Virus record (IMG/VR): IMGVR_UViG_3300045988_068596
Source of the DNA: a virus
Direction: 5' to 3' (one strand)
Length of the DNA stretch: 64,000 nt
Below the pieces are notes generated by a model. That model was not told the DNA's origin. It saw nothing but the letters and a program-made list of their open reading frames with translations, and made no database searches. The translations under genes were made by a program, and so were the position numbers. Below are positions 5,139-63,635 of the stretch, piece after piece; the first letter of the stretch is position 1; each line of letters begins with the position of its first letter.

Positions 5139-5285
5139 ATGTATCCACACTTAGCAATGCTCTATGCAACGTATGTCATGAAAGACCCTAAAACATGGAC
5201 GATGGACAAAGTTCCTGCTATGATTCGAGAAGATGTACAAAGAATTGTAGATGAAATGACAAAAAAAGAACAAGTACCCGAGTAG
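5139..5285 (+). CDS. Unlisted small ORF of 48 aa (MYPHLAMLYATYVMKDPKTWTMDKVPAMIREDVQRIVDEMTKKEQVPE).
   Basis: Strong RBS tagggaggtgataacATG. It falls below the 60-aa cutoff of the ORF track. Its position after the fibre gene resembles XkdX-like small genes. Confidence 0.4.
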   Translation: MYPHLAMLYATYVMKDPKTWTMDKVPAMIREDVQRIVDEMTKKEQVPE

Positions 5286-5362
5286 TCTTTCTAACACTAG
5301 GGGTTTCCATTGGTTTAGTCGCAGGACTAGCTATTGGGTTCTTCCTATAATGCTCGGGGAGA

Positions 5363-5396
5363 GGAAGAGGGTGGCTTAGGCTGTCCTCTTTTTTCT
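5363..5396 (+). terminator. Terminator hairpin aagagg-N14-cctctt followed by tttttc.
   Basis: Stem-loop plus T-run after the small ORF. It is preceded by a second hairpin whose arms tcttcct/aggaaga bracket a TATAAT hexamer. Confidence 0.45.
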
Positions 5397-17230: not shown

Positions 17231-17310
17231 AAGATGTAACTGTAATGTAACATTTCTATGCCTCTTACTGTGGTATACTTATTGTATACGAAATAGTAGG
17301 AGGTTTTTTA

Positions 17311-18273
17311 ATGGTTAAAGCATTACAATTAGCAGGTACTACATTTGGTAAATGGCACGTAAAAGAACGAGATACTTCTAAGAAAGGTAGAGCATACTGG
17401 ATTTGTGAATGCTCTTGTGGAAGAACAGTTCAATCTATTCCGAGCGGTACTCTTACTACAGGCTCATCTGTGATGTGTAAACAATGTGCAAATGAGAAAT
17501 CTTTAGTGGGTAAGACTTTTGGTAGGTTGACCGTCATTAAAGATTCAGGTGAACGAGCAACTAATGGTAGTATCCTTTGGGAGTGTAAATGTTCCTGTGG
17601 GAAGACAAGCCTTGTCAGGGGTTCAGAGTTAACAGGGGGTCGCACAAAGAGTTGTGGTTGTTACTCCACGGATGTACTCAAAAAAGTAGCCACTAAGCAT
17701 GGATTGTCTAAAGTGAACGGAAAACCCACAAAATTATTCCGGGCATGGGCTTCGATGAAACAACGGTGTTACAACAAGAACCATGCGAGTTATAAAGATT
17801 ACGGTGGAAGAGGTATAACCATATGTTCTGAATGGCGTGAAAACTTTGAAGCTTTCCATGATTGGGCTATGACTAACGGATTTTCCGATGACTTGTCTAT
17901 TGATAGAATTGACAATGACAAAGGTTACTCACCAGATAACTGTCGATGGGTAGATGCTAAAACCCAGATTCGAAATAGACGAAATACAGTTACTTATGAG
18001 TGGCAAGGAAAAGAGTATACTCGAGCTGAGTTAAGTAGGTTGACAGGTATAAATGAGCAAACCATTGCTTCAAGATTGAACAAAGGTTTTTCCCTTGAAG
18101 AAGCCCTTTCTTCAAAAATAGGCACTTCTGTATTACTTATGACCTATAAAGAGGAGACTAAACCTGTCAAACAATGGTGTAAAGAACTAGGGTTGAACTA
18201 TGCAACTGTACGTAACAGACATTATAAGGGTTGGACTGATGAAGAAGCTTTGACTGGTATACGTAATAAATAG
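17311..18273 (+). CDS. Free-standing HNH homing endonuclease.
   Basis: Duplicated Cys clusters (WICECSCGRT / WECKCSCGKT). HNH core 'DRIDNDKGYSPDNCRW'. C-terminal DNA-binding-like region. Confidence 0.6.
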   Translation: MVKALQLAGTTFGKWHVKERDTSKKGRAYWICECSCGRTVQSIPSGTLTTGSSVMCKQCANEKSLVGKTFGRLTVIKDSGERATNGSILWECKCSCGKTSLVRGSELTGGRTKSCGCYSTDVLKKVATKHGLSKVNGKPTKLFRAWASMKQRCYNKNHASYKDYGGRGITICSEWRENFEAFHDWAMTNGFSDDLSIDRIDNDKGYSPDNCRWVDAKTQIRNRRNTVTYEWQGKEYTRAELSRLTGINEQTIASRLNKGFSLEEALSSKIGTSVLLMTYKEETKPVKQWCKELGLNYATVRNRHYKGWTDEEALTGIRNK

Positions 18274-18290
18274 TCAACCAAGTTGAATAG

Positions 18291-18329
18291 CCTCTATATG
18301 CTATACTAGGCATATAGGGGTTATTTTTT
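18291..18329 (+). terminator. Rho-independent terminator.
   Basis: cctctatatgc-tatactag-gcatatagggg followed by ttattttttat. Confidence 0.7.
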
Positions 18330-18350
18330 ATGTAAAGGAGACTTATTGAT

Positions 18351-18557: not shown

Positions 18558-18685
18558 AATGTCCTATTTTAATTTTTTGACCTCCTTATATATTTAATAT
18601 TATATATTTAACTATTTATCTAAGTTATAAGTATTTATATATTATATATTTATATATAAGGGAACCAAAAATGGAAAATAGGACA

Positions 18686-18714
18686 TTGACATACACTTAC
18701 AGTACTGGTACAAT
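18686..18714 (+). promoter_or_regulatory. Sigma-A promoter TTGACA-17-TACAAT for the helicase operon.
   Basis: TTGACA at 18686-18691, 17-bp spacer, TACAAT at 18709-18714. The -35 overlaps the right arm of a 13-bp inverted repeat. Confidence 0.55.
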
Positions 18715-32818: not shown

Positions 32819-32845
32819 TTACTACTAGGTAGTACAGAGTTTTAC

Positions 32846-32917
32846 TCCTTTTGCTTGTAAGGCGTTCCTGTCAGTTATGTTATAATAGAGATAGGAAAAC
32901 TAAATAGCAAAAGGAGT
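32846..32917 (+). promoter_or_regulatory. Promoter (TTGTAA-17-TGtTATAAT) embedded between 11-bp inverted-repeat arms actccttttgc/gcaaaaggagt. The downstream arm contains the RBS of the 32924 gene.
   Basis: Extended -10 TGTTATAAT at about 32869-32877. The inverted repeat spans 32848-32858 and 32907-32917. Confidence 0.4.
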
Positions 32918-34103: not shown

Positions 34104-34943
34104 TTGAAAATACTGTTCTTACAAGATTATATCAGAGAGACCCATGTACATAACAGTCAGAATGGACAATATGTAGACTATAAACGTACTGACATGGGTA
34201 AAAAGCTTACAAGTTTACTTAACGACATAGGTTTAACAGGTCGTGATTATATAATTGACTACGATTATGACCTAATTCCTGAACCACAGAAGGTAAATAA
34301 TAAAACAGGTAAAGTTATTAAATACAAGGAGCCTGTATTAAAACTTCGGAAAGAACCTGAAAAACGTTTATTAAAACGATTAATGAAAACAAAACCAGAC
34401 ATCATTATTCCTATGGGAGGAATGGGATGTAAGAACTTATTGAATAGTACTTCTATTACGAAAGCACGTGGTGTTCCTGTACAAAAAACAATTACTGATG
34501 AAGAAACAGGAGAGTTTTTTGATACATGGATTTTACCAATGTTTAGTATGGAATACTTGTCAATGAATCCTAATATTGAGAACTTGGTAAAAGCAGACAT
34601 TTCTACTTTATCTCGTTTTATTGCAGAGGGTGCACAAGCATTTGAGCCAAAGAAAGTTGAGTATGAGCTTGTTATGACAATTGAACGAGTGAAACAAATC
34701 TTTGAGTTCTTGTCTCGGTTTAAACCTCTTACTGCATGGGACTTGGAAACAAATAGTCTACGTGGAGATGTATTAGGTGCGAAACCACTAGTTATGTCTC
34801 TTAGTTGGGAAGAGGGTCAGGGTGTTACGATTCCCTTAGAACATCATGAATCCCCTTGGAATGAAGAAGAACTAGCTATTGTATACAATCATTTACAAGC
34901 TTTTGTAGCTGATGCACAGCAACCAAAGGTAGGACACAACATT
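34104..34943 (+). CDS. Family-A DNA polymerase, exon 1 (3'-5' exonuclease ExoI region). It continues after the group I intron.
   Basis: TTG start with RBS aaaggggaagag. ExoI 'AWDLETNSL'. The ORF ends 'KVGHNI' directly before the intron. Confidence 0.7.
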
Positions 34944-35674
34944 TAACAACATGGGTGTTGTAAAATCCCTCTCATATCGGTGAACGCTAAGGGAGAAATC
35001 CTATGCCAATACCGAGCCTACATTAACGGTGACGTTAGATGGGGTGTAGAGACTGAGCCGAGTCCTTGCAGGACAAGGTGAGAAGTGGTGTATCATGACA
35101 GAAAGGTTGTGATACTATGAAGAAATGCAAAGTATGTGGAAAAGAAAAGGATTTAGACCAATACTACACATATAAAAAATATGGCAAAACCTATATCAAT
35201 GGTAAGTGCAAAGTGTGTACTCTAGCTCAAAACAAGAAGTATAGAGATACCACTGGTTATGACAGAGCACGTTATCAAAAAGATAAGGAAAAGATTAGAC
35301 AACTACAAAGAGAGTACAGTAAAACAGAGGAAGGGCGTAAAGCTCGGCTAGAAGCTTCAAGACGTTATCGAGAATCAGAACACGGTAAACTTAAGCAGAA
35401 AGCACGAGCAGTAGTTAACCACGCAATTAGAGATGGTAAGCTAATTAAGCCAGAAATCTGTATGGATTGTGGCAGAAGTACTCAGTTAGAGGCGCACCAC
35501 AAAGACTACAATAAGCCCTTAGATGTAGATTGGATTTGTAAAAATTGTCATGAAAATAGACACCACTTAAATGAGGGAAGTACATCTGAGTAGGTACCTG
35601 CAAGCAAACCTACTGAATTACCACAGGTGTACTAAGGTATAGTCCACTCCTTTAGGAAACTAGAGGGTACAGTG
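34944..35674 (+). mobile_element. Group I self-splicing intron (~731 nt) in the DNA polymerase gene, carrying an HNH endonuclease ORF.
   Basis: Exon 1 ends in U. The intron 5' region has GGUGUUGU, complementary to the exon-1 end ACAACAUU (P1 with U•G at the splice site). The intron ends in G before exon 2 'caatttgat'. Splicing restores the ExoII motif VGHNIQFDIRFL. Confidence 0.7.
35117..35593 (+). CDS. Intron-encoded HNH homing endonuclease (158 aa).
   Basis: Motifs 'CKVCGKEK...CKVC' and 'CMDCGRSTQLEAHHKDYNKPLDVDWICKNCHENRHH' (HNH with zinc-binding Cys). Confidence 0.7.
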   Translation: MKKCKVCGKEKDLDQYYTYKKYGKTYINGKCKVCTLAQNKKYRDTTGYDRARYQKDKEKIRQLQREYSKTEEGRKARLEASRRYRESEHGKLKQKARAVVNHAIRDGKLIKPEICMDCGRSTQLEAHHKDYNKPLDVDWICKNCHENRHHLNEGSTSE

Positions 35675-37861
35675 CAATTTGATATTCGTTTCTTAATGAA
35701 CACAAAAGGGTTTGCTTATTTTGAGAATAACCGTGATACATTGATTGGGTATTACTTAATCGTAGCACAGAAAATTGAAAGCTCTAAACGTTTGTCAGAC
35801 CTTGCTTATGAACTAACTGATATGGGCGGTTATGACAACCCGTTAGAAGACTATAAGAAGAAATACAAGGAAGACTACATTGCTCGTAAGAAAGCTGAAA
35901 TTGACGAGCTGAAAGCTTCTGAGAAAGCACGTGTAGAGAAGGAATACAAACTAGCACAGGCTAAATACAAAGAAGAAGTGGCAAAAGCTAAGAAATTAGG
36001 TAAGTCTACTAAATCAATTTTGAAACCTGTAAAAGAAAAAGTAGCTGTTCCTTCTAAGACAGAAGTTAAAACTGTGAATGAAATTGATGGTGGGGACTTT
36101 AACTATGATTGGATTCCATTAGAAATTATGCACCCATACGCAAGTGGAGATACAGATTGTTGCTTACGTATTTATAACGTACTATACCAACGAATTGCTC
36201 CTCATGAAAAAATTCTAGCTCTTTGGACAGACTTCTATCCTAAACTTACACGGACACTTGCTCATCTAGAAGCAGAAGGTATCTTCGTTGATAAAGAATA
36301 TGCGAAAGTTCTTGAAAAGGTATATGCAGAAGAGGAAGAACGTCTTATCGAAGAATTACGTAAGTTCCCTGCTGTTAAAGAGTTAGAAGCAGAGCATATG
36401 GCACTTTATAAAGCAGGTCTAGAAGAATGGAAGAAACCCAAGTCAGAACGAGACGAAGAGGTTGCTAAACTTCGTGATAAATACAAGATTTCTGATAAGG
36501 AAAACAAAGTTAAGTTCAATCCCGGCTCTGCTGTCCATAAAGGAAAAGTTCTTTATAAGATTCTTGGTCTAACATTACCTTATGACAAAGAGTCCATTAA
36601 AGAAAAACCTTTTGATAATGGTGTTCCTGAAAACGAATTAACTTGGGAAGACTACAAGACAGATAAACATGCTTTGGGCTATATCGCAGAGCACGATGAA
36701 GATGCAAAAGAATTAGCAGAAATGCTACTTGAATACTCTAAAGTAAATACCTTGAAGAACAACTTTGCTCAGAAACTTCCGTTACTAGCTTCAAACAAAG
36801 ATGGAAAAGTACATGGTTCGTTCAAGATTACTGGTACAGAAACAAGTCGTTTATCTTCAAAAGAGCCTAACATGCAACAAGTACCGTCTAAAGTCGGAGA
36901 CCCTAAACGTTTTGACTATACGTACCCAATTAAGCGTATGTTTAAAACAAGTTTTGAGAACGGGGCTTTATTACAGCTTGACTACTCAGCCCTAGAAATG
37001 CGTATTCTAGCTTTAGTAGCCGGAGACGAAGCGATGACCCAAGCTTTCTTAGACGGAGAGGACTTACACAAATCAACCGCTTCTATTGTTTGGAAAGTAC
37101 CTGTATCAGAAGTATCTAAGGATATGCGTAAGAATGCTAAGAGTGTTAACTTTGGTATTGCTTATGGTGAAACACCTTTCTCTATTGCTCCTAAATTAGG
37201 TGTAACACCAGAAGAAGCCGAACGTATCTTTGAAGACTACTTTGCAAACAAACCACGTATTAAATCCTTTATTGATGAAACACATGAGTTTGTTAAAGAA
37301 AACGGGTATGTAGATACCTTACAAGGACACCGTAGATTGATTCGTGATGCGTTCTCTAAAGACCGTAACACATTCAATGGTGCTTTACGTAAGTCAGTAA
37401 ACACGATTATTCAAGGAACTGGTGCATACTTAACAAACATGTCTTTGGTTTATATTGATGATTATCTAAGAACTAAAGGTATGAAGTCTCGTATTGCTAT
37501 CACAGTACATGACTCCATTGTAATTGATTGTCCTCGTGAAGAAGTAGACGAAGTAGCAAAAGTAGCTTGTTTTATCATGGAAAACCTACCGATTGATTTC
37601 TTAACAATTAATTGGAAAGGGGAACAAATGCGATTTCCTATTGTAGCCGATGTAGAAATCGGGGAAAACTACAATGACATGGTAGACTACGATGCAGACG
37701 AAGTGAACAAATTTGCTTCTTATAAAGGATATGTTAAGTATTACAAAGACCAAGCTAAATTTGAAGACTATAAGAACGCAGGTATGATTAGTGAGGAACA
37801 AATGGAAGTCGGTATTAATGCAGTTAAGGCTTCTATAGAACAGTACAAACTAATTGTGTAA
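35675..37861 (+). CDS. Family-A DNA polymerase, exon 2 (ExoII/III plus polymerase domain).
   Basis: Pol I motif A 'DYSALEMRILA', motif B 'RKNAKSVNFGIAYG', motif C 'VHDSIVID'. The track ORF at 35672 uses a GTG inside the intron. Confidence 0.75.
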   Translation, partial: QFDIRFLMNTKGFAYFENNRDTLIGYYLIVAQKIESSKRLSDLAYELTDMGGYDNPLEDYKKKYKEDYIARKKAEIDELKASEKARVEKEYKLAQAKYKEEVAKAKKLGKSTKSILKPVKEKVAVPSKTEVKTVNEIDGGDFNYDWIPLEIMHPYASGDTDCCLRIYNVLYQRIAPHEKILALWTDFYPKLTRTLAHLEAEGIFVDKEYAKVLEKVYAEEEERLIEELRKFPAVKELEAEHMALYKAGLEEWKKPKSERDEEVAKLRDKYKISDKENKVKFNPGSAVHKGKVLYKILGLTLPYDKESIKEKPFDNGVPENELTWEDYKTDKHALGYIAEHDEDAKELAEMLLEYSKVNTLKNNFAQKLPLLASNKDGKVHGSFKITGTETSRLSSKEPNMQQVPSKVGDPKRFDYTYPIKRMFKTSFENGALLQLDYSALEMRILALVAGDEAMTQAFLDGEDLHKSTASIVWKVPVSEVSKDMRKNAKSVNFGIAYGETPFSIAPKLGVTPEEAERIFEDYFANKPRIKSFIDETHEFVKENGYVDTLQGHRRLIRDAFSKDRNTFNGALRKSVNTIIQGTGAYLTNMSLVYIDDYLRTKGMKSRIAITVHDSIVIDCPREEVDEVAKVACFIMENLPIDFLTINWKGEQMRFPIVADVEIGENYNDMVDYDADEVNKFASYKGYVKYYKDQAKFEDYKNAGMISEEQMEVGINAVKASIEQYKLIV

Positions 37862-37899: not shown

Positions 37900-37926
37900 T
37901 GCCCTAACTTGTAATGTGTGCTATAA
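37900..37926 (+). promoter_or_regulatory. Promoter with extended -10 TGTGCTATAAT and -35 TTGCCC.
   Basis: Member of the TRTGTGTGCTATAWT motif family. Confidence 0.4.
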
Positions 37927-37983
37927 TAATAGAGCAGACAGGTTAGGGAATGTCTGTAATACCGGAAAGGAGAATAAGACAGT

Positions 37984-41272: not shown

Positions 41273-41647
41273 TTGCGTAAAACTACACCAGTTAACACTG
41301 TACTAGAAGCCTTAGAAATGTTTCAACAAGGAACAACAACTACAGAGGTTCGTACGCCTATTTCTTTACAATCTGTACGTAAACGTTTCTTAGATGCTAA
41401 AGAAGCAGGAAAACGTGTATTGATTGAAAACTCTGATTTAAGTAGTGCAAACTCTGTTGTTGTTGATATTGACTATGTGGGTAGCCGTTGGTGCTTAGGT
41501 TATCAAAAAGTATTATACTTTGGAGAAGAGATACGCATTCCTCATACTATACACTTTTGCGATGTATATGGGGCTTACGGTAACGAAGCACAAAGAAGTA
41601 AACGGCAAGTGAAAATCATTTTTGAAGGAGAGAACCCTTTTGAGTAG
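41273..41647 (+). CDS. Hypothetical protein (124 aa).
   Basis: TTG start with RBS gatggaggaaa. Confidence 0.35.
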   Translation: MRKTTPVNTVLEALEMFQQGTTTTEVRTPISLQSVRKRFLDAKEAGKRVLIENSDLSSANSVVVDIDYVGSRWCLGYQKVLYFGEEIRIPHTIHFCDVYGAYGNEAQRSKRQVKIIFEGENPFE

Positions 41648-42257
41648 AGACCTTAACAAAGAGGAACGTGAGATTAGAAACGGAAATCGTTTCATTACTG
41701 AGGTTCACGGTAAGGGGGTCTTTCCACGAGATGTTGATAGACTGTACCACCGTTATGCCAACTTACGTTACAAGGTCTATAACACTCATAAAGACTCTTT
41801 TCGAAGTGAAGCCTCACGAAAAGAACTAAGAAGTTATATTGATGAACAATTTATCAAGTTAACGAAAGAATATGATATTAACGGAGAAGTTGATTTTCCG
41901 GGATATATCAAAAAGGCTCTTAATCTAAGAGTTAGACATAGCTTTGTGAAAGGACGTTTTCGTGATAGTGCTCGTGAACGTCTGGGAGCAGAGGACAACG
42001 AGATTGAAACATTACTGGGAACAGACACCTCTTCTCAGGAAGCAATTGAAGATGCTGAACTAATTGATGATTTACTATCTAAAGCGAAGTTTAGCCCTGT
42101 AGAACTAGCTGTATTCAGCTACTTGCTACGAGGTAAGGTAAAAGATGCTAATATCATTAAAGAGGTGTCAGCGAAGTATAAAGTGTCTCAAAAGTCCGTT
42201 AGAGATGCAATCAAAAACGTGCGGGAGTACGTTGCGTTAAATCTTAAAGACCGATAG
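41640..42257 (+). CDS. Sigma-70-family sigma-factor-like protein (regions 2 and 4).
   Basis: C-terminal HTH 'VSQKSVRDAIKNVREYV'. TTG at 41640 after RBS gaaggagag. Confidence 0.45.
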   Translation: MSRDLNKEEREIRNGNRFITEVHGKGVFPRDVDRLYHRYANLRYKVYNTHKDSFRSEASRKELRSYIDEQFIKLTKEYDINGEVDFPGYIKKALNLRVRHSFVKGRFRDSARERLGAEDNEIETLLGTDTSSQEAIEDAELIDDLLSKAKFSPVELAVFSYLLRGKVKDANIIKEVSAKYKVSQKSVRDAIKNVREYVALNLKDR

Positions 42258-42266
42258 AATTAGTTA

Positions 42267-42320
42267 AAATCCTCCTTGTGTGTATGCTATATTAGCAGTA
42301 GAAACACAAAGGAGGATTTT
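42267..42320 (+). promoter_or_regulatory. Inverted repeat whose 12 perfectly pairing bp (aaaatcctcctt / aaggaggatttt) are extended by imperfect pairs. The loop contains the extended -10 TGcTATATT. The downstream arm contains the holin RBS.
   Basis: Left arm 42267-42283, right arm 42305-42320. The start codon lies 5 nt after the arm. Confidence 0.45.
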
Positions 42321-42325
42321 TGTAA

Positions 42326-42603
42326 TGGAAGAACAAAACAACACTGGCAAATACGCTCCATTTATTCGACTAATTGTAATGGGTATCTCCTTCGTGGCTA
42401 CTGGTTTAACAACTATGTTTGGTTGGGAACCACTACCTTTTACAGACGAACAAATGAACCAAGGTTTAATGCTTGTACTTTCTGTTGGACTTGCTATCTA
42501 TAACTGGTACAAGAACAACGCTGTTACTAAGTACGGTAAAGCTAAAGAGCAAGCAGGTAAAGAAGTTGTCGGAACTCGACAAGACTTCAAACAACAAGGC
42601 TAA
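42326..42603 (+). CDS. Holin, SPP1/XhlB family (Phage_holin_1-like), with 2 TM segments.
   Basis: Two hydrophobic helices. C-terminal 'LPFTDEQMNQG...NWYKNNAVTKYGKAKEQ' resembles the XhlB/SPP1 holin motif W(W/F)KNNYVTKKG (from memory). ATG at 42326 with RBS aaaggagga. Confidence 0.6.
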
Positions 42604-42652
42604 GTTTGAGGGGGTAAACCCCCTCCTTAGTTGATATTAAAGGAGTATGACA

Positions 42653-43849
42653 ATGGAACTAACAAATTTAAGTGCTAAAACACTACCCGAATTAAACGGG
42701 AAGTTTCTTGTTGTAGAGACTCTATCAGACGGATACACAGGAACCGTAAACGGTCATTATAACTATGAAGTTGTTACTAAAGGTGAGGACTATGAAATCT
42801 ATCCCACACTTTGGAACAACGAAAAAGCGCAGTTTGTAAAAGCTGACGAAATGGTTGTGTATACAAACGGAGATACTGTATTCTATGTAACAAGAACAAC
42901 AAAAGACCCCTATAACCATGCTGTTATCAGTGAGTTAATCGTTGAAGAAGGAATGGATAAGGATAAGCGCACCCTTCAAGCTTTCCGACTATTCGCAGAC
43001 GATTTATTCTCTATCGGAAACTATAACGTGTTCTTAACACACCAAATTGATGTAGTAGACAGCCCAAATAACGTAAAAGTTGAATCAGTTTCCTTAGACA
43101 AAGAATCCGGAACATTATATGTGGGTGACACAGTAGAATTAACAGCAACTGTACTACCAGAAAATGCCACAGTCAAAGACGTAACATTCTCTGTTGTTCC
43201 AGAAGGAATTGCTACTGTAACTGCTACTGGTGCCAAGGCAACAGTTACAGCTAAAGTAAAAGGTTCAGCTAATGTTATCGTAACTACATTAGACGGAGAC
43301 AAAACAGCTCAATATGCTTTAACAGTGAAAGAACACGTTTCAGTTTCTGGTATTACTTTAAATAAAGAAGCTACTTCAATTGTTAAAGGTGCTACAGAAA
43401 CACTTGTTGCAACAGTAACTCCACCAGATGCAGAAAACAAAGCTGTAACATGGGAATCTGATAAACCTGCTGTAGCTAAAGTAGACCAAAACGGAAAGGT
43501 TACAGCAGTAGACGGTGGTACCGCTAATATTACTGCGACAACAGTTGACGGTAAGAAAGTAGCAACTTGTGTTGTGACAGTAACTGTTCCTGTAACAGGC
43601 GTTACACTAGATACGAATGCTATTACTTTAGAAATTGACGGTACACAAAAATTAGTAGCAACAGTTGCTCCTATTAACGCAACAAATAAAAAAGTAACGT
43701 GGAAATCCGATAAACCGGAAATTGCTACTGTAGACCAAGAAGGTATAGTGACAGGTATTGCAGACGGTACAGCTAACGTAACAGCAGAAACAGAAGATGG
43801 TAAGAAAGTAGCTACTTGTGCTGTAACAGTTAACCCTGCGCAAGCATAA
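42653..43849 (+). CDS. Surface/structural-type protein with an N-terminal ~140-aa domain followed by three Big_2 (bacterial Ig-like) repeats.
   Basis: Repeated segments 'VTLDTNAITLEIDGTQKLVATVAPINATNKKVTWKSDKPEIATVDQEG...TANVTAET'. Confidence 0.55.
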   Translation: MELTNLSAKTLPELNGKFLVVETLSDGYTGTVNGHYNYEVVTKGEDYEIYPTLWNNEKAQFVKADEMVVYTNGDTVFYVTRTTKDPYNHAVISELIVEEGMDKDKRTLQAFRLFADDLFSIGNYNVFLTHQIDVVDSPNNVKVESVSLDKESGTLYVGDTVELTATVLPENATVKDVTFSVVPEGIATVTATGAKATVTAKVKGSANVIVTTLDGDKTAQYALTVKEHVSVSGITLNKEATSIVKGATETLVATVTPPDAENKAVTWESDKPAVAKVDQNGKVTAVDGGTANITATTVDGKKVATCVVTVTVPVTGVTLDTNAITLEIDGTQKLVATVAPINATNKKVTWKSDKPEIATVDQEGIVTGIADGTANVTAETEDGKKVATCAVTVNPAQA

Positions 43850-43875
43850 TATACTAGGAAAAGAGGAATACTAAA

Positions 43876-44316
43876 ATGGCTAAAGAAATCGCAAATATTG
43901 CAGACTTATTAAAACCAAGCGTAAAAACTGTCGAACTAGACGGTAAATATCTTGTAGTACCTACCCTATCAGATGGGTATACTGGTACAGTACAGGGGGC
44001 TTATGCTTATGAAGTTAAGAAATCAGGAACAGACTACAAAGTAAGTGAACTTATCTATGATAAAGATAAAAACACGTTTACTCCTGCGGATGCTCCAATT
44101 ATCATGACAGATGACGATACAATTTTCTTCGTTACTCGTACGTTGATTGACCCTTACAACTACCCAGTAATTAGTGAGGCTACAGTTAAGGCTCATGAAA
44201 TTAAAGAAAAACAAGTACTTCAAGCATTTATTGCCTTTGCAGAAGACAGATTCAAACTAGGAGTATACAACGTATTCTTAGCAGATGACCCTTATATCTT
44301 GCAAGACAAAGCATAA
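43876..44316 (+). CDS. Stand-alone paralog of the N-terminal domain of the Big_2 protein (146 aa).
   Basis: Alignable motifs 'LSDGYTGTV', 'FVTRT..DPYN..VISE' and 'LQAF..FA.D.F..G.YNVFL' are shared with 42653-43849. Confidence 0.55.
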   Translation: MAKEIANIADLLKPSVKTVELDGKYLVVPTLSDGYTGTVQGAYAYEVKKSGTDYKVSELIYDKDKNTFTPADAPIIMTDDDTIFFVTRTLIDPYNYPVISEATVKAHEIKEKQVLQAFIAFAEDRFKLGVYNVFLADDPYILQDKA

Positions 44317-44364: not shown

Positions 44365-44424
44365 GTTGACGACTTACACCTCTCTTGGTATACTTAGACT
44401 ATACTAAATAAGAGAGGTGTTTTA
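44365..44424 (+). promoter_or_regulatory. Promoter TTGACG-17-TATACT whose -10 is bracketed by a perfect 11-bp inverted repeat acacctctctt/aagagaggtgt, followed by tttt.
   Basis: Inverted repeat at 44376-44386 and 44410-44420. The loop has a duplicated TATACT. It may also serve as a terminator for the upstream gene. Confidence 0.45.
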
Positions 44425-55055: not shown

Positions 55056-55082
55056 GCCTGTCTTTTTTTTGTAATTAAAGTA

Positions 55083-55111
55083 TTGACAATAAACAGTAAG
55101 CATGATATACT
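55083..55111 (+). promoter_or_regulatory. Strong early-type sigma-A promoter TATTGACA-17-TATACT.
   Basis: TTGACA at 55083-55088 and TATACT at 55106-55111. Confidence 0.6.
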
Positions 55112-58918: not shown

Positions 58919-58922
58919 TTCC

Positions 58923-58963
58923 CTAAGTAGCGGGTTACAAAAATCCGCTAAGTAGCAGGCTAG
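58923..58963 (+). repeat. Two copies of the iteron CTAAGTAGCGGGTTACA / CTAAGTAGCAGGCTAG.
   Basis: Same repeat family as the 7-copy array at 63217-63380. Confidence 0.6.
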
Positions 58964-58992
58964 AGACATCTTTTATAGATGTCTCTTTTTTA
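58961..58992 (+). terminator. Rho-independent terminator.
   Basis: agagacatc-tttta-tagatgtctct followed by tttttta. Confidence 0.7.
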
Positions 58993-60146: not shown

Positions 60147-60236
60147 TAGCAGGATTCTATTTATATAATTTAAGAGTCCTGATTCTACCGTATATTTAAC
60201 AGGAATGTGCGGTAGAATTTTATTTACATAAACCTA

Positions 60237-60265
60237 TTGACAATAAACAATAAATAGGATACTAT
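60237..60265 (+). promoter_or_regulatory. Early promoter TATTGACAATAAACAA-TACTAT followed by ATACATGTAAGATAAA.
   Basis: Conserved early promoter family. Confidence 0.6.
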
Positions 60266-61608: not shown

Positions 61609-61619
61609 AAACATATCTA

Positions 61620-61648
61620 TTGACAATAAACAATAGAAGAGTTATACT
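61620..61648 (+). promoter_or_regulatory. Early promoter TATTGACAATAAACAA-TATACT.
   Basis: Conserved early promoter family. Confidence 0.6.
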
Positions 61649-61674
61649 ATGTATGAAGATAAGGAAAGGGAGAG

Positions 61675-62018: not shown

Positions 62019-62663
62019 TTGAACACAGAAAACAGAGTAAGAAGAGGGAGACCTCGTAAATATCCAGAGGGAGCTAAACGGGTAGACAATACAAGTTTGA
62101 TAGTCACAAAGAAACAAAAAGAATACATTGGTAATATCGCAAAGTTAAACAAGGAAACAGTAAAAGAGACAAGTAACAGGCTACTAAAAGAAGTTTTAGA
62201 TGGCAAGTTTGATTACTTGTTAACACCTATTGTAGAAGAAGATGTACCATCTGTGCCAGTAACAGTGGATAGGAAGTTGACACATGAGGTACAGAAGTAT
62301 TTAGAGGGTTACAACGAGAATGCTTCGGAAGTAATACGGAAAATAGTGGAGGAGTTTATGATTATGACAGACAGAACACTGAAAGTAGTTGGGGGTTACG
62401 AACTGGGGGTAACTTCCATTACAAAAGAGCTTAAACGATTTTGGTTGAAACCTACAGAGGAAGCAGAAGAAAATATGTTCTTTATGGATGCCTCCATTCA
62501 ACTAGATGTGGATAACCGACATGTAGTCATTCGTGAAAAATCTATGGGTGTCCGCTCAATCAGTCAAATGGAAGAGCTTAAACGCTACAAAGACCAACTG
62601 ATAGAGACAGCTTCACAATTACAGGATGCACTGGATACTTACGTTGCGAAACATTTAGGATAA
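62019..62663 (+). CDS. AT-hook-containing protein (214 aa).
   Basis: N-terminal 'RVRRGRPRKYPEG' matches the AT-hook core RGRP. TTG start with RBS tagggggaacc. Confidence 0.4.
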   Translation: MNTENRVRRGRPRKYPEGAKRVDNTSLIVTKKQKEYIGNIAKLNKETVKETSNRLLKEVLDGKFDYLLTPIVEEDVPSVPVTVDRKLTHEVQKYLEGYNENASEVIRKIVEEFMIMTDRTLKVVGGYELGVTSITKELKRFWLKPTEEAEENMFFMDASIQLDVDNRHVVIREKSMGVRSISQMEELKRYKDQLIETASQLQDALDTYVAKHLG

Positions 62664-62770
62664 ACTTTTAGGATATAGGATAGGATAAACAGGATAGGAT
62701 GCGTTTAGGATAGGATAAGATAGGATAAGATTCACTTAGGATAGGATAGGATGAAAGGAGACAGGATATA
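62654..62770 (+). repeat. Long GGATAGGATA / UAG-triplet purine repeat array (~11 UAG triplets) spanning the stop of the 62019 gene through the Shine-Dalgarno of the 62771 gene.
   Basis: Sequence ttTAGgataTAGgaTAGgataaacaggaTAGgatgcgttTAGgaTAGgataagaTAGgataagattcactTAGgaTAGgaTAGgatgaaaggag. Confidence 0.6.
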
Positions 62771-63220
62771 ATGTTAAGTACAGCAGAATATGATTCACTT
62801 AGAGAGTATTTAGTAGCCGTAATTCATAACCAAATTAGTGAGGATGAGAGAGACACACAAAGCTTAGACGTATGGAAGGAAGAGGTTGACAAGCTGACAG
62901 TAGACAATTGGAGAGAACGTTGCATAAACCTAGCAGATTTGTTATATGTAGATACTCCCGCTTCACTGGCAGACATTTACAAAGATTATAAAGAGGAGCT
63001 AAACGAAATACTCAGAGATTACACAGATGAGCTACGTGCAGGAGCTACGTTCAATAAGGTAGCTGACGAGCGCCTAGGGTGGATGTGGGAAGACTATGAC
63101 CCATTAATACTAGAAGCACATAATCAAGGTCTAGTGGCTCGTTTAGGGCTTCTAATCGTTGCTGAACAACTTGCTACTCAATTAGAACAAGGGACGTTTA
63201 CAATACCATATGATAACTAA
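62771..63220 (+). CDS. Second cassette gene: soluble acidic protein (149 aa).
   Basis: RBS aaaggagacaggatataATG. Confidence 0.45.
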   Translation: MLSTAEYDSLREYLVAVIHNQISEDERDTQSLDVWKEEVDKLTVDNWRERCINLADLLYVDTPASLADIYKDYKEELNEILRDYTDELRAGATFNKVADERLGWMWEDYDPLILEAHNQGLVARLGLLIVAEQLATQLEQGTFTIPYDN

Positions 63221-63380
63221 GTAACAGGCTAGCCTAAGTAGCAGGCTAGCTTTTTTCTTCTAAGTAGCAGGTTAGCTAAAATCTTCTAAGTAACGGGCTA
63301 CAGTAAAAAAACTCTAAGTAGCGGGCTACAAAAATCCTCTAAGTAGCGGGCTACAAAAATCCTCTAAGTAGCGGGCTACA
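63217..63380 (+). repeat. Array of seven ~16-17-bp iterons (consensus CTAAGTAGCGGGCTACA) with a ~25-bp period and conserved AAAATCCTC spacers in the 3' copies.
   Basis: Copies at 63217, 63234, 63261, 63287, 63315, 63340 and 63365. Each contains the palindrome GTAGC-GG-GCTAC. Confidence 0.7.
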
Positions 63381-63519
63381 AACAGCTTATAAAATCCCGA
63401 GGCATACCATCCGACAACCAGACCCGTCACCTTTGCCCGTTCAATATGCCACCACTTAAACCCATTTTTTTTCTTATATATAGAAGAAAAAAGTTTTTCA
63501 TCTTTTTTAGTGTTTTCTA

Positions 63520-63548
63520 TTGACATTAAGAAATAGGCATGATATAGT
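63520..63548 (+). promoter_or_regulatory. Early promoter TTGACA-17-TATAGT, followed by an RBS-like aaaggag with no ORF.
   Basis: First of tandem promoters upstream of the 63679 gene. Confidence 0.5.
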
Positions 63549-63606
63549 ATAGACAGTTAAAGAAAGGAGAAACAAAAAAATAAATAAAAAAATTTAAAAA
63601 AAGTTA

Positions 63607-63635
63607 TTGACATTAAACAATAAACACTATATAAT
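63607..63635 (+). promoter_or_regulatory. Early promoter TATTGACATTAAACAA-TATAAT followed by AAACATGTAAGATAAA.
   Basis: Conserved early promoter family. Confidence 0.6.

Follow-up and report, generated by a model that had tools for sequence, protein, structure and literature searches.

In phage T4, the Shine-Dalgarno (SD) sequence and the AUG of gene e are hidden in a hairpin on the long early transcripts, and a late promoter lies inside the hairpin-coding DNA, giving a late mRNA that does not carry the 5′ strand and is translated (PMC3014915). A corresponding arrangement has been described for I-TevI, I-TevII, I-TevIII and segB of T4 and for mobE of the Aeromonas phage Aeh1, in which the ribosome-binding site (RBS) of the endonuclease is sequestered on read-through RNA and a late promoter is placed so that the gene's own transcripts cannot fold the structure (PMC2988022). 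Among the Herelleviridae, RNA-seq of the Staphylococcus Kayvirus vB_SauM-515A1 revealed late promoters consisting of a long -10 box TGTTATATTA (one of them being TGCTATATTA) without a -35 element, with a G-enriched initiator 6 bp after the box (PMC7698491). In the same data set, the RNA-seq-defined terminator t157 (...GCCTTCCTTGTGTTATATTA...AGGGAAGGCTTTTTT) contains the late promoter pL158 (PMC7698491, Tables S2 and S3), and t75 contains pL74, on which transcription of holA-lysK is completely dependent (PMC7698491). Terminators and promoters are listed separately in that report, the main text of which uses neither the word hairpin nor the word ribosome (PMC7698491); the overlap of terminator and promoter and the occlusion of the RBS are thus visible but uninterpreted in the published Kayvirus tables. 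For the Listeria P100-like phage CKA15, ONT-cappable-seq assigned TDTGCTATATTA to genes peaking at 40 min (PMC12282133). Our literature search found no transcriptome or translation data for any Enterococcus phage of the Herelleviridae.

The locus studied herein lies in a 64,000-nt stretch of viral DNA, which was analyzed as a whole and is hereafter called the window, and in which all called genes are carried on the + strand. Positions 41600-43900 were 99% identical to the Enterococcus phages PEF1, EfV12-phi1, EFDG1 and others, and on sequence grounds the window is assigned to a Schiekvirus-like Enterococcus phage (Herelleviridae, Brockvirinae). A sigma-like gene upstream and a holin gene downstream of the hairpin, as proposed in an earlier note on this DNA, were both recovered in the profile searches (phrog_1025, E 4e-74; PF04688, E 6e-25), the latter profile scoring 87.7 bits against a curated cut-off of 27 (E 5.8e-25). 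The sigma factor gene is the final gene of the upstream replication/recombination unit; its TAG stop codon occupies 42255-42257, and the hairpin begins 8 nt later, with no separate terminator in between, within a sigma/holin intergenic region of 67 nt. The holin is homologous to that of Geobacillus phage E3, the gene of which adjoins the endolysin; the Holin_SPP1 gene of the window is not adjacent to an endolysin, and its role as a functional lysis timer is an annotation. The gene order SSB-UvsX-hypothetical-sigma-holin-Ig-domain structural proteins is kept in the Enterococcus, Listeria and Lactobacillus Herelleviridae. As a separate observation on this gene set, the UvsX-like recombinase of phage Revolver (L002, 354-1900) is annotated as two CDS about 300 nt apart, which suggests an intron, an intein or a frameshift.

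The elements of the hairpin in this intergenic region are listed in Table 1. AAAATCCTCCTT (42266-42277) is the exact reverse complement of AAGGAGGATTTT (42309-42320), giving a perfect helix of 12 bp, which is lengthened to 17 bp by the pairing of TGTGT (42279-42283) with ACACA (42304-42308) past the bulged G42278. The loop of 20 nt contains an inner mini-stem of 5 bp, TGCTA (42285-89) with TAGCA (42293-97), and the minimum free energy of the hairpin was -25.7 kcal/mol (z = -4.0 against dinucleotide shuffles). The holin SD, GGAGGA (42311-42316), is enclosed in the 3′ arm, and TTTTTGTA directly precedes the holin ATG at 42325. The earlier note had thus correctly recognized the 3′ arm (42309-42320), the perfect 12 bp, the further pairing that lengthens the stem and the SD in the downstream arm; its 5′ arm, given as 42267-42278, was displaced by 1 nt.

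Table 1. Coordinates of the hairpin at the sigma/holin junction, its flanking genes and the related elements in the window.
Feature	Position	Strand	Remarks
Phage RNA polymerase sigma factor gene	41640..42257 (start 41622 or 41640)	+	phrog_1025, E 3.7e-74; same annotation in relatives
5′ arm (anti-SD): AAAATCCTCCTT, bulged G42278, TGTGT	42266..42283	+	Upstream of predicted start
Putative late-promoter -10 box TGCTATATTA in hairpin loop	42285..42294	+	No good -35
Predicted late transcription start	42300..42301	+	Kayvirus initiator rule; 6-7 nt past the -10 box, 3-4 nt before the 3′ arm
3′ arm ACACAAAGGAGGATTTT, including the holin SD GGAGGA	42304..42320	+	
U-tract TTTTTGT, doubling as the SD-to-ATG spacer	42317..42323	+	Immediately 3′ of the G+C-rich stem portion
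Holin gene, 92 aa, Holin_SPP1 family	42325..42603	+	PF04688 and phrog_263 holin
Canonical terminator-like hairpin downstream of the holin gene	42606..42630	+	
Sister element, GCCTCTTACTGT with ATAGTAGGAGGT around TGGTATACT, then TTTTTT	17260..17304	+	ATG 17311, HNH homing endonuclease
Related hairpin without RBS lock, 16 bp, TATACT of TGCTATACT in loop, then TTTTTT	~18286..18331	+	
Sister element, ACTCCTTTTGCT with AGCAAAAGGAGT, 12 bp perfect, around TGTTATAAT (32878-86)	32844..32917	+	ATG 32924
Sister element, ACACCTCTCTTG with TAAGAGAGGTGT, 11-12 bp, then TTTTATT	44376..44420	+	GTG 44427

The hairpin is a real, non-random and conserved feature. The 64-kb window contains three inverted repeats with perfectly paired arms of 12 bp or longer and a loop of 3-60 nt, against 0.31 ± 0.52 in shuffles, and two of the three (42266 and 32844) bury an SD, the remaining one being an ordinary terminator. 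A perfect complement of at least 10 bp to the gene's own SD window was found in 3 of 30 intergenic regions, compared with 0.025 expected, a level not seen in any of 1000 shuffles. At gathering thresholds, Rfam yielded no family for the window. According to the predicted folds, the unpaired probability of the holin SD would be 0.000 on read-through RNA (-150 to +35) and 0.32 on RNA from its own promoter, as expected from the earlier proposal that the RBS is occluded in read-through but free in loop-initiated transcripts; for the three sister modules described below, the corresponding predicted values were 0.001-0.017 and 0.54-0.72.

The loop carries an extended -10 element, TGCTATATT (42285-42293), which the earlier note had already pointed out, and the complete -10 box proved to be identical at 10 of 10 positions to TGCTATATTA, a mapped late promoter of the Herelleviridae (TGYTATATTA class). 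Together with the upstream TA, the loop promoter matches TDTGCTATATTA of Listeria phage CKA15, and the loop sequence TATGCTATATTA fits both the Kayvirus and the CKA15 consensus. The best candidate in a -35 search was TTAAAA at 18-nt spacing, with 9/12 positions matching overall. From the Kayvirus rule, the late start in this phage is predicted at around 42300/42301, and since this position lies between the arms, RNA from the gene's own promoter would not carry the 5′ arm. CTGCTATATTAG is kept at the sigma/holin junction even in the Listeria phage A511, and an IMG/VR search with the loop motif returned the same three Enterococcus-phage variants together with chance matches and nothing else. Promoters of another type also occur in the window: early-type modules ATTGACA(A/T)TAAACAAT...TATACT/TATAAT are located at 55080-55110, 60236-60262, 61618-61650, 63520-63550 and 63607-63635, and resemble the sigma-A-type early promoters of Kayvirus and Listeria phages.

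The spacer between the SD and the start codon is likewise unusual. At the four genes with an SD-sequestering hairpin, 6, 5, 6 and 6 of the 8 nt preceding the start codon are T (6 at the holin gene), against a mean of 1.86 at the other 64 genes, only 3% of which have at least 5 (Mann-Whitney P = 0.00035) and the SD-start spacers of which are A-rich. In other parts of the window, a terminator is usually followed by a promoter and then by the SD, and the four hairpin-bearing intergenic regions are without a separate terminator. Since a U-tract follows all four hairpins, they also resemble intrinsic terminators. Like canonical Rho-independent terminators, the 42266 element has a stable, G+C-containing stem just past a stop codon with an adjoining U-rich tract (UUUUUGU after GGAGGA); unlike them, the elements of the window have a structured, promoter-bearing loop of 20-50 nt in place of a compact hairpin with a short loop of 3-8 nt, and the 3′ arm is the SD of the next gene. 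A simple consensus terminator scan of the window did not call the 42266 hairpin. The loops of the Kayvirus elements t157 and t75 are equally long, yet both are RNA-seq-defined terminators. The earlier model of read-through and timing was therefore sound in outline but incomplete, as it had overlooked this U-tract signature: the hairpin may itself end most upstream transcripts, so that read-through may be a minority, in which case timing would be set mainly at the level of transcription, by termination and the late promoter, with RBS occlusion acting as a fail-safe.

The four elements share a common layout, in which the 5′ arm precedes or overlaps the promoter, the loop contains the -10, the 3′ arm contains the SD, and the start codon comes next. 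At 44376 the 5′ arm lies within the spacer of a TTGACG-17-TATACT promoter. The 32844 hairpin (arms 32844-55 and 32906-17) has a structured loop of about 50 nt and a weak U-tract, UUAAUUAU, and precedes a gene for a 264-aa protein of phrog_1054, to which no function is assigned. At 17260 and 44376 the helix measures only about 12 bp. Of the parallels listed in the earlier note, 32846-32917 (more exactly 32844-32917) and 44376-44420 were confirmed, and a fourth true member, 17260-17304, was missing from its list; no RBS is sequestered at the other two. The purine-rich arm at 5337-5372 forms the 5′ half of a canonical terminator stem and is not followed by a start codon. The hairpin given as 18291-18320 does surround a -10 and carries a U-tract, but the SD of the following gene (18334-40) lies outside the arm.

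Other pairings in the window were set aside. An inverted repeat at 37905-37950, CCCTAACTTGT/ACAGGTTAGGG around TGCTATAAT, leaves out the SD of the gene that follows and is not conserved in EF24C and Revolver, and G.U-rich pairings between a terminator U-tract and an SD at 34104 and 55142 were judged uninformative. Several further features of the intergenic DNA were recorded in their own right. A 36-nt imperfect inverted repeat at 18558-18687 (AATGTCCTATTTTA... / ...TAAAATAGGACATT) with an extremely A+T-rich spacer is located just 5′ of the DNA helicase gene, its outer arms being present also in EF24C, and may serve as an origin of replication or in regulation. Repeats of 25 nt in tandem, TCTAAGTAGCGGGCTACAAAAATCC, with a small GTAGC...GCTAC palindrome in each of the approximately 5 copies, occupy 63217-63382, with related copies near 58919 (58919-58965), and tandem TAGGATAGGATAAGA-type units with a 31-nt period (62649-62752, 2.5 copies, containing the ATAGG pentamer about 15 times) fill the intergenic region before the gene at 62771. 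A 46-codon ORF at 5139-5279 with a strong SD, AGGGAGGTGA, lies below the ORF cut-off in a 319-nt gap between called genes, at a place corresponding to that of the 48-aa gene gp034 annotated in EF24C.

Comparison with relatives showed that the hairpin persists through sequence change. In EF24C, 156 and Revolver, phages of the sister genus Kochikohdavirus, the 86-nt region is 86-87% identical and the holin hairpin is kept as a 16-bp helix, in which the two pairs beside CCUCC/GGAGG are flipped (U-A, A-U to A-U, U-A), and one inner pair is G-C in Revolver, G.U in phage 156 and A-U in EF24C; in the Schiekvirus phages EfsSzw-1 and TJE1, the bulge is on the opposite strand. As the MAFFT alignment offset the 5′ arm by one column, the pairs were tabulated by hand, and the covariation is drawn from few independent lineages with about 3-5 variants per helix. 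Over all the collected helices, the non-Watson-Crick positions on the sense strand comprised 15 G.U against 1 A.C, a count biased by the helix search, which permitted G.U. At about seven positions with a Watson-Crick pair in sister variants, however, one partner only is substituted, and each of these changes yields G.U, which favors a sense-strand RNA structure over a DNA palindrome.

The other elements showed turnover of their arms. The 32844 hairpin has wholly different arms in EF24C (AATGCTCTTTCTAC/GTAGAAGGAGCATT) and in Revolver, with the SD still covered; in place of the 44376 hairpin, which they lack, EF24C and Revolver have a canonical terminator and a promoter as separate elements; and the 18286 hairpin is built on three different stems in the window, EF24C and Revolver, each with an extended -10 in the loop. 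The hairpin at 17260 travels with the gene that follows it. This gene (17311-18273) encodes an HNH homing endonuclease (phrog_374, E 2e-101) and is found in most Schiekviruses and some Kochikohdaviruses but is absent in PEf771, EFGrNG, GVEsP-1 and EF24C; in the divergent copy of phage 113, the hairpin is built from other arms, AACCTCCTA/TAGGAGGTT, its loop contains TATAAT, and the depositor annotated it as a terminator that overlaps the RBS. Apart from the hairpin, the free-standing endonuclease gene is inserted between the stop codon of a tail-protein gene and the next hairpin, with AAATAG duplicated at both junctions; it varies in presence among near-identical phages (the window, L102, L103, L104 and L109), and the two genera share 86-89% identity over the region. 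A further endonuclease gene was noticed in the DNA polymerase gene, which is uninterrupted in EF24C and split in the window (34104-34946, phrog_4008; 35672-37861, phrog_17) by an insert of about 725 nt holding an endonuclease ORF (35117-35593, phrog_2340, E 3e-53) and a weak match to the group I intron family RF00028 (18.9 bits, E 0.029, below gathering). A 10-bp hairpin, which stops 2 nt short of the ATG, carries the SD of this insert endonuclease in its loop.

Outside these genera, the same architecture with non-homologous arms followed the sigma gene in further lineages among its IMG/VR relatives (L116, L155-161 and L166). At the sigma/holin junction of Listeria A511, the promoter is kept but there is no hairpin, and the homologous 50 kb of that phage contained no Watson-Crick SD hairpins, only trivial G.U pairing of U-tracts with purines. 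Among the sigma-gene relatives, the hairpin was also lacking in the Twort-sized, Bacillus-phage-sized, Listeria and Lactobacillus (521B) phages, and its absence from lineages such as A511, the Bacillus-phage-sized relatives and Lactobacillus 521B means that it is dispensable there. Loci retrieved by the holin were mostly unrelated SPP1-type holins of small phages, with no hairpin on large contigs.

The closest described counterparts of the window's elements are the overlaps in Kayvirus vB_SauM-515A1, a member of the same family, which show the same order of 5′ arm, TGTTATATTA in the loop, 3′ arm, U-tract and start codon. The t157/pL158 pair, located directly after the sigma gene and before the Ig-domain and tail genes, is the positional counterpart of the 42266 element, while t75, the 3′ arm of which (AAAGGUCGGU) is followed by UUUUUUA-AUG of holA, precedes a holin gene, and RNA-seq backs both termination and late initiation (PMC7698491). 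t60/p59 and t142/p143 repeat the series of 5′ arm, -10, SD arm, U-tract and ATG with sigma-A-type promoters, as do the 44376 and 17260 elements. The arms are, however, non-homologous between the two phages, and the Kayvirus holin is of another family and at another locus. With T4 gene e, the lysozyme gene (and also soc and gene 49), the window would share, by analogy, the logic of a promoter in a hairpin, and it may share a lysis gene within an earlier transcription unit. Sequence, host and family are unrelated, the T4 promoter TATAAATA works with gp55 and that of the window, TGCTATATTA, would work with a gp34-like sigma, no terminator role is described for the T4 hairpins, which lack a U-tract, and the T4 gene encodes an endolysin, not a holin. 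The HNH endonuclease at 17311 has exactly the layout of the I-TevI class, including a hairpin that moves with the gene, but it belongs to other endonuclease families and phages, and its hairpin adds a U-tract and an extended -10 of the TGGTATACT/TATAAT type. Of the hallmarks of the T4 systems, base pairing of the SD in a stable helix on upstream transcripts was found here in silico, and a late promoter of the gene's own is present inside the hairpin at the sequence level, its start being predicted. The mechanism would be analogous to that of T4 gene e and to that of I-TevI, a terminator signature being added here.

Four other explanations of the layout were weighed. If the hairpin were a terminator or insulator only, the sigma operon would end in the 67-nt gap with the promoter and the SD placed there for lack of room, the purine-rich SD serving as a convenient G+C-rich arm, and read-through would be negligible, leaving no regulatory RBS occlusion. 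The U-tract bias, the identification of t157, t75, t60 and t142 as terminators by RNA-seq, the canonical terminator that replaces the 44376 hairpin in EF24C and Revolver, and the depositor's reading of the phage 113 hairpin are all in line with this, as is the 18286 hairpin, which has a loop -10 and a U-tract without an SD in its arm and is conserved with compensatory changes. The 32844 element, however, is a poor terminator on account of its long structured loop and weak U-tract, yet its SD pairing survives complete arm turnover between genera; moreover, the arm covers the SD core in every lineage, not another G+C-rich stretch, and the guarded genes, a holin and a homing endonuclease, are of the classes that T4 guards by RBS sequestration. 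We consider termination alone an unlikely account. The opposite case, a purely translational lock of the T4 gene e type as modeled in the earlier note, would involve no appreciable termination, with middle read-through transcripts occluded and only the loop-initiated late RNA translated. It draws on the geometry of hairpin, promoter and SD, on the T4 precedents and on the long loops, which disfavor termination, but it does not accommodate the U-tracts that follow all four hairpins against the A-rich spacers of other genes, or the termination by the Kayvirus counterparts in RNA-seq, and appears quite improbable.

Bacillus RNase III cleaves intergenic hairpins in the early mRNA of the SPO1-like phage SP82, and the helix might similarly be a site for RNase III or another double-strand RNase, by which the sigma and holin messages would be parted, the SD cut and the read-through RNA inactivated. 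Helices of 16-22 bp do occur, including the coaxial inner stem in EF24C; nothing specific speaks for cleavage, though, the helices at 17260 and 44376 are short, and the U-tracts would go unexplained, so that we give this idea very little credence. It is even harder to credit an element acting at the DNA level, either an operator bound by a dimeric regulator or a cruciform presenting a single-stranded -10 to the phage sigma factor. Of 15 extended -10 promoters, 6 are indeed flanked by inverted repeats stronger than those around 95% of random positions, and the -10 hexamer is exactly in the loop at 18286. The arms of the different sites have only the anti-SD core in common, which leaves no common operator, and an operator for a shared protein was rejected; the sense-strand G.U substitutions (15 vs 1) would be G.T/A.C mismatches in DNA, and loops of 20-50 nt disfavor cruciform extrusion.

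Taken together, we judge it reasonably probable that 42266-42323 is a compact terminator, late promoter and RBS lock between the sigma and holin genes. In this combined module, RNA from the upstream replication, recombination and sigma genes would fold the 17-bp hairpin, which with the UUUUU would constitute an intrinsic terminator ending the unit, and any polymerase reading through would leave the holin SD buried in the helix, so that no holin would be made from such RNA. At the late stage, the host polymerase bound to the phage sigma factor would start at the -35-less TGCTATATTA in the loop, at about 42300, and the resulting mRNA, having the 3′ arm without the 5′ arm, would neither terminate nor hide its RBS, allowing the holin to be made. 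The same module would guard the mobile homing endonuclease and two other genes of the window. Underlying this proposal are the sequence, the statistical excess, the conservation of pairing, the identity of the motif and the U-tract bias observed here; the terminator and late-promoter activities of the layout are known from Kayvirus relatives only, and we infer the transcription start, the termination efficiency and the translational block in this phage. Because the loops, 20 nt here and about 50 nt at 32844, are longer than those of typical intrinsic terminators, the termination efficiency is uncertain, and some of the U-tract is itself paired, with the AAAA in the 5′ arm, which counts against the proposal.

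In a wider perspective, the chances seem about even that the Herelleviridae use a portable cassette of about 55 nt, as yet undescribed as a unit, in which a terminator hairpin has a promoter (usually a late one for the phage sigma factor) in its loop and the next SD in its 3′ arm, and which evolved repeatedly with non-homologous arms in the Brockvirinae and Twortvirinae and moves with homing-endonuclease genes. If so, holins, homing endonucleases and other genes of these phages would strictly need their internal promoter, both transcriptionally and translationally, which would explain how a holin gene can be silent directly behind the middle-expressed replication and sigma genes in large Gram-positive myoviruses, and how mobile endonucleases insert into late operons without disturbance. 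The cassette would provide an annotation rule (5′ arm, TGYTATATTA, SD-containing arm, U-tract) for a therapeutically used phage family, as well as a small naturally occurring part with which synthetic biology could insulate a gene, restart its transcription and gate its translation within about 55 nt. The classic T4 mechanism would then extend to a distant phage family, with a terminator function added.
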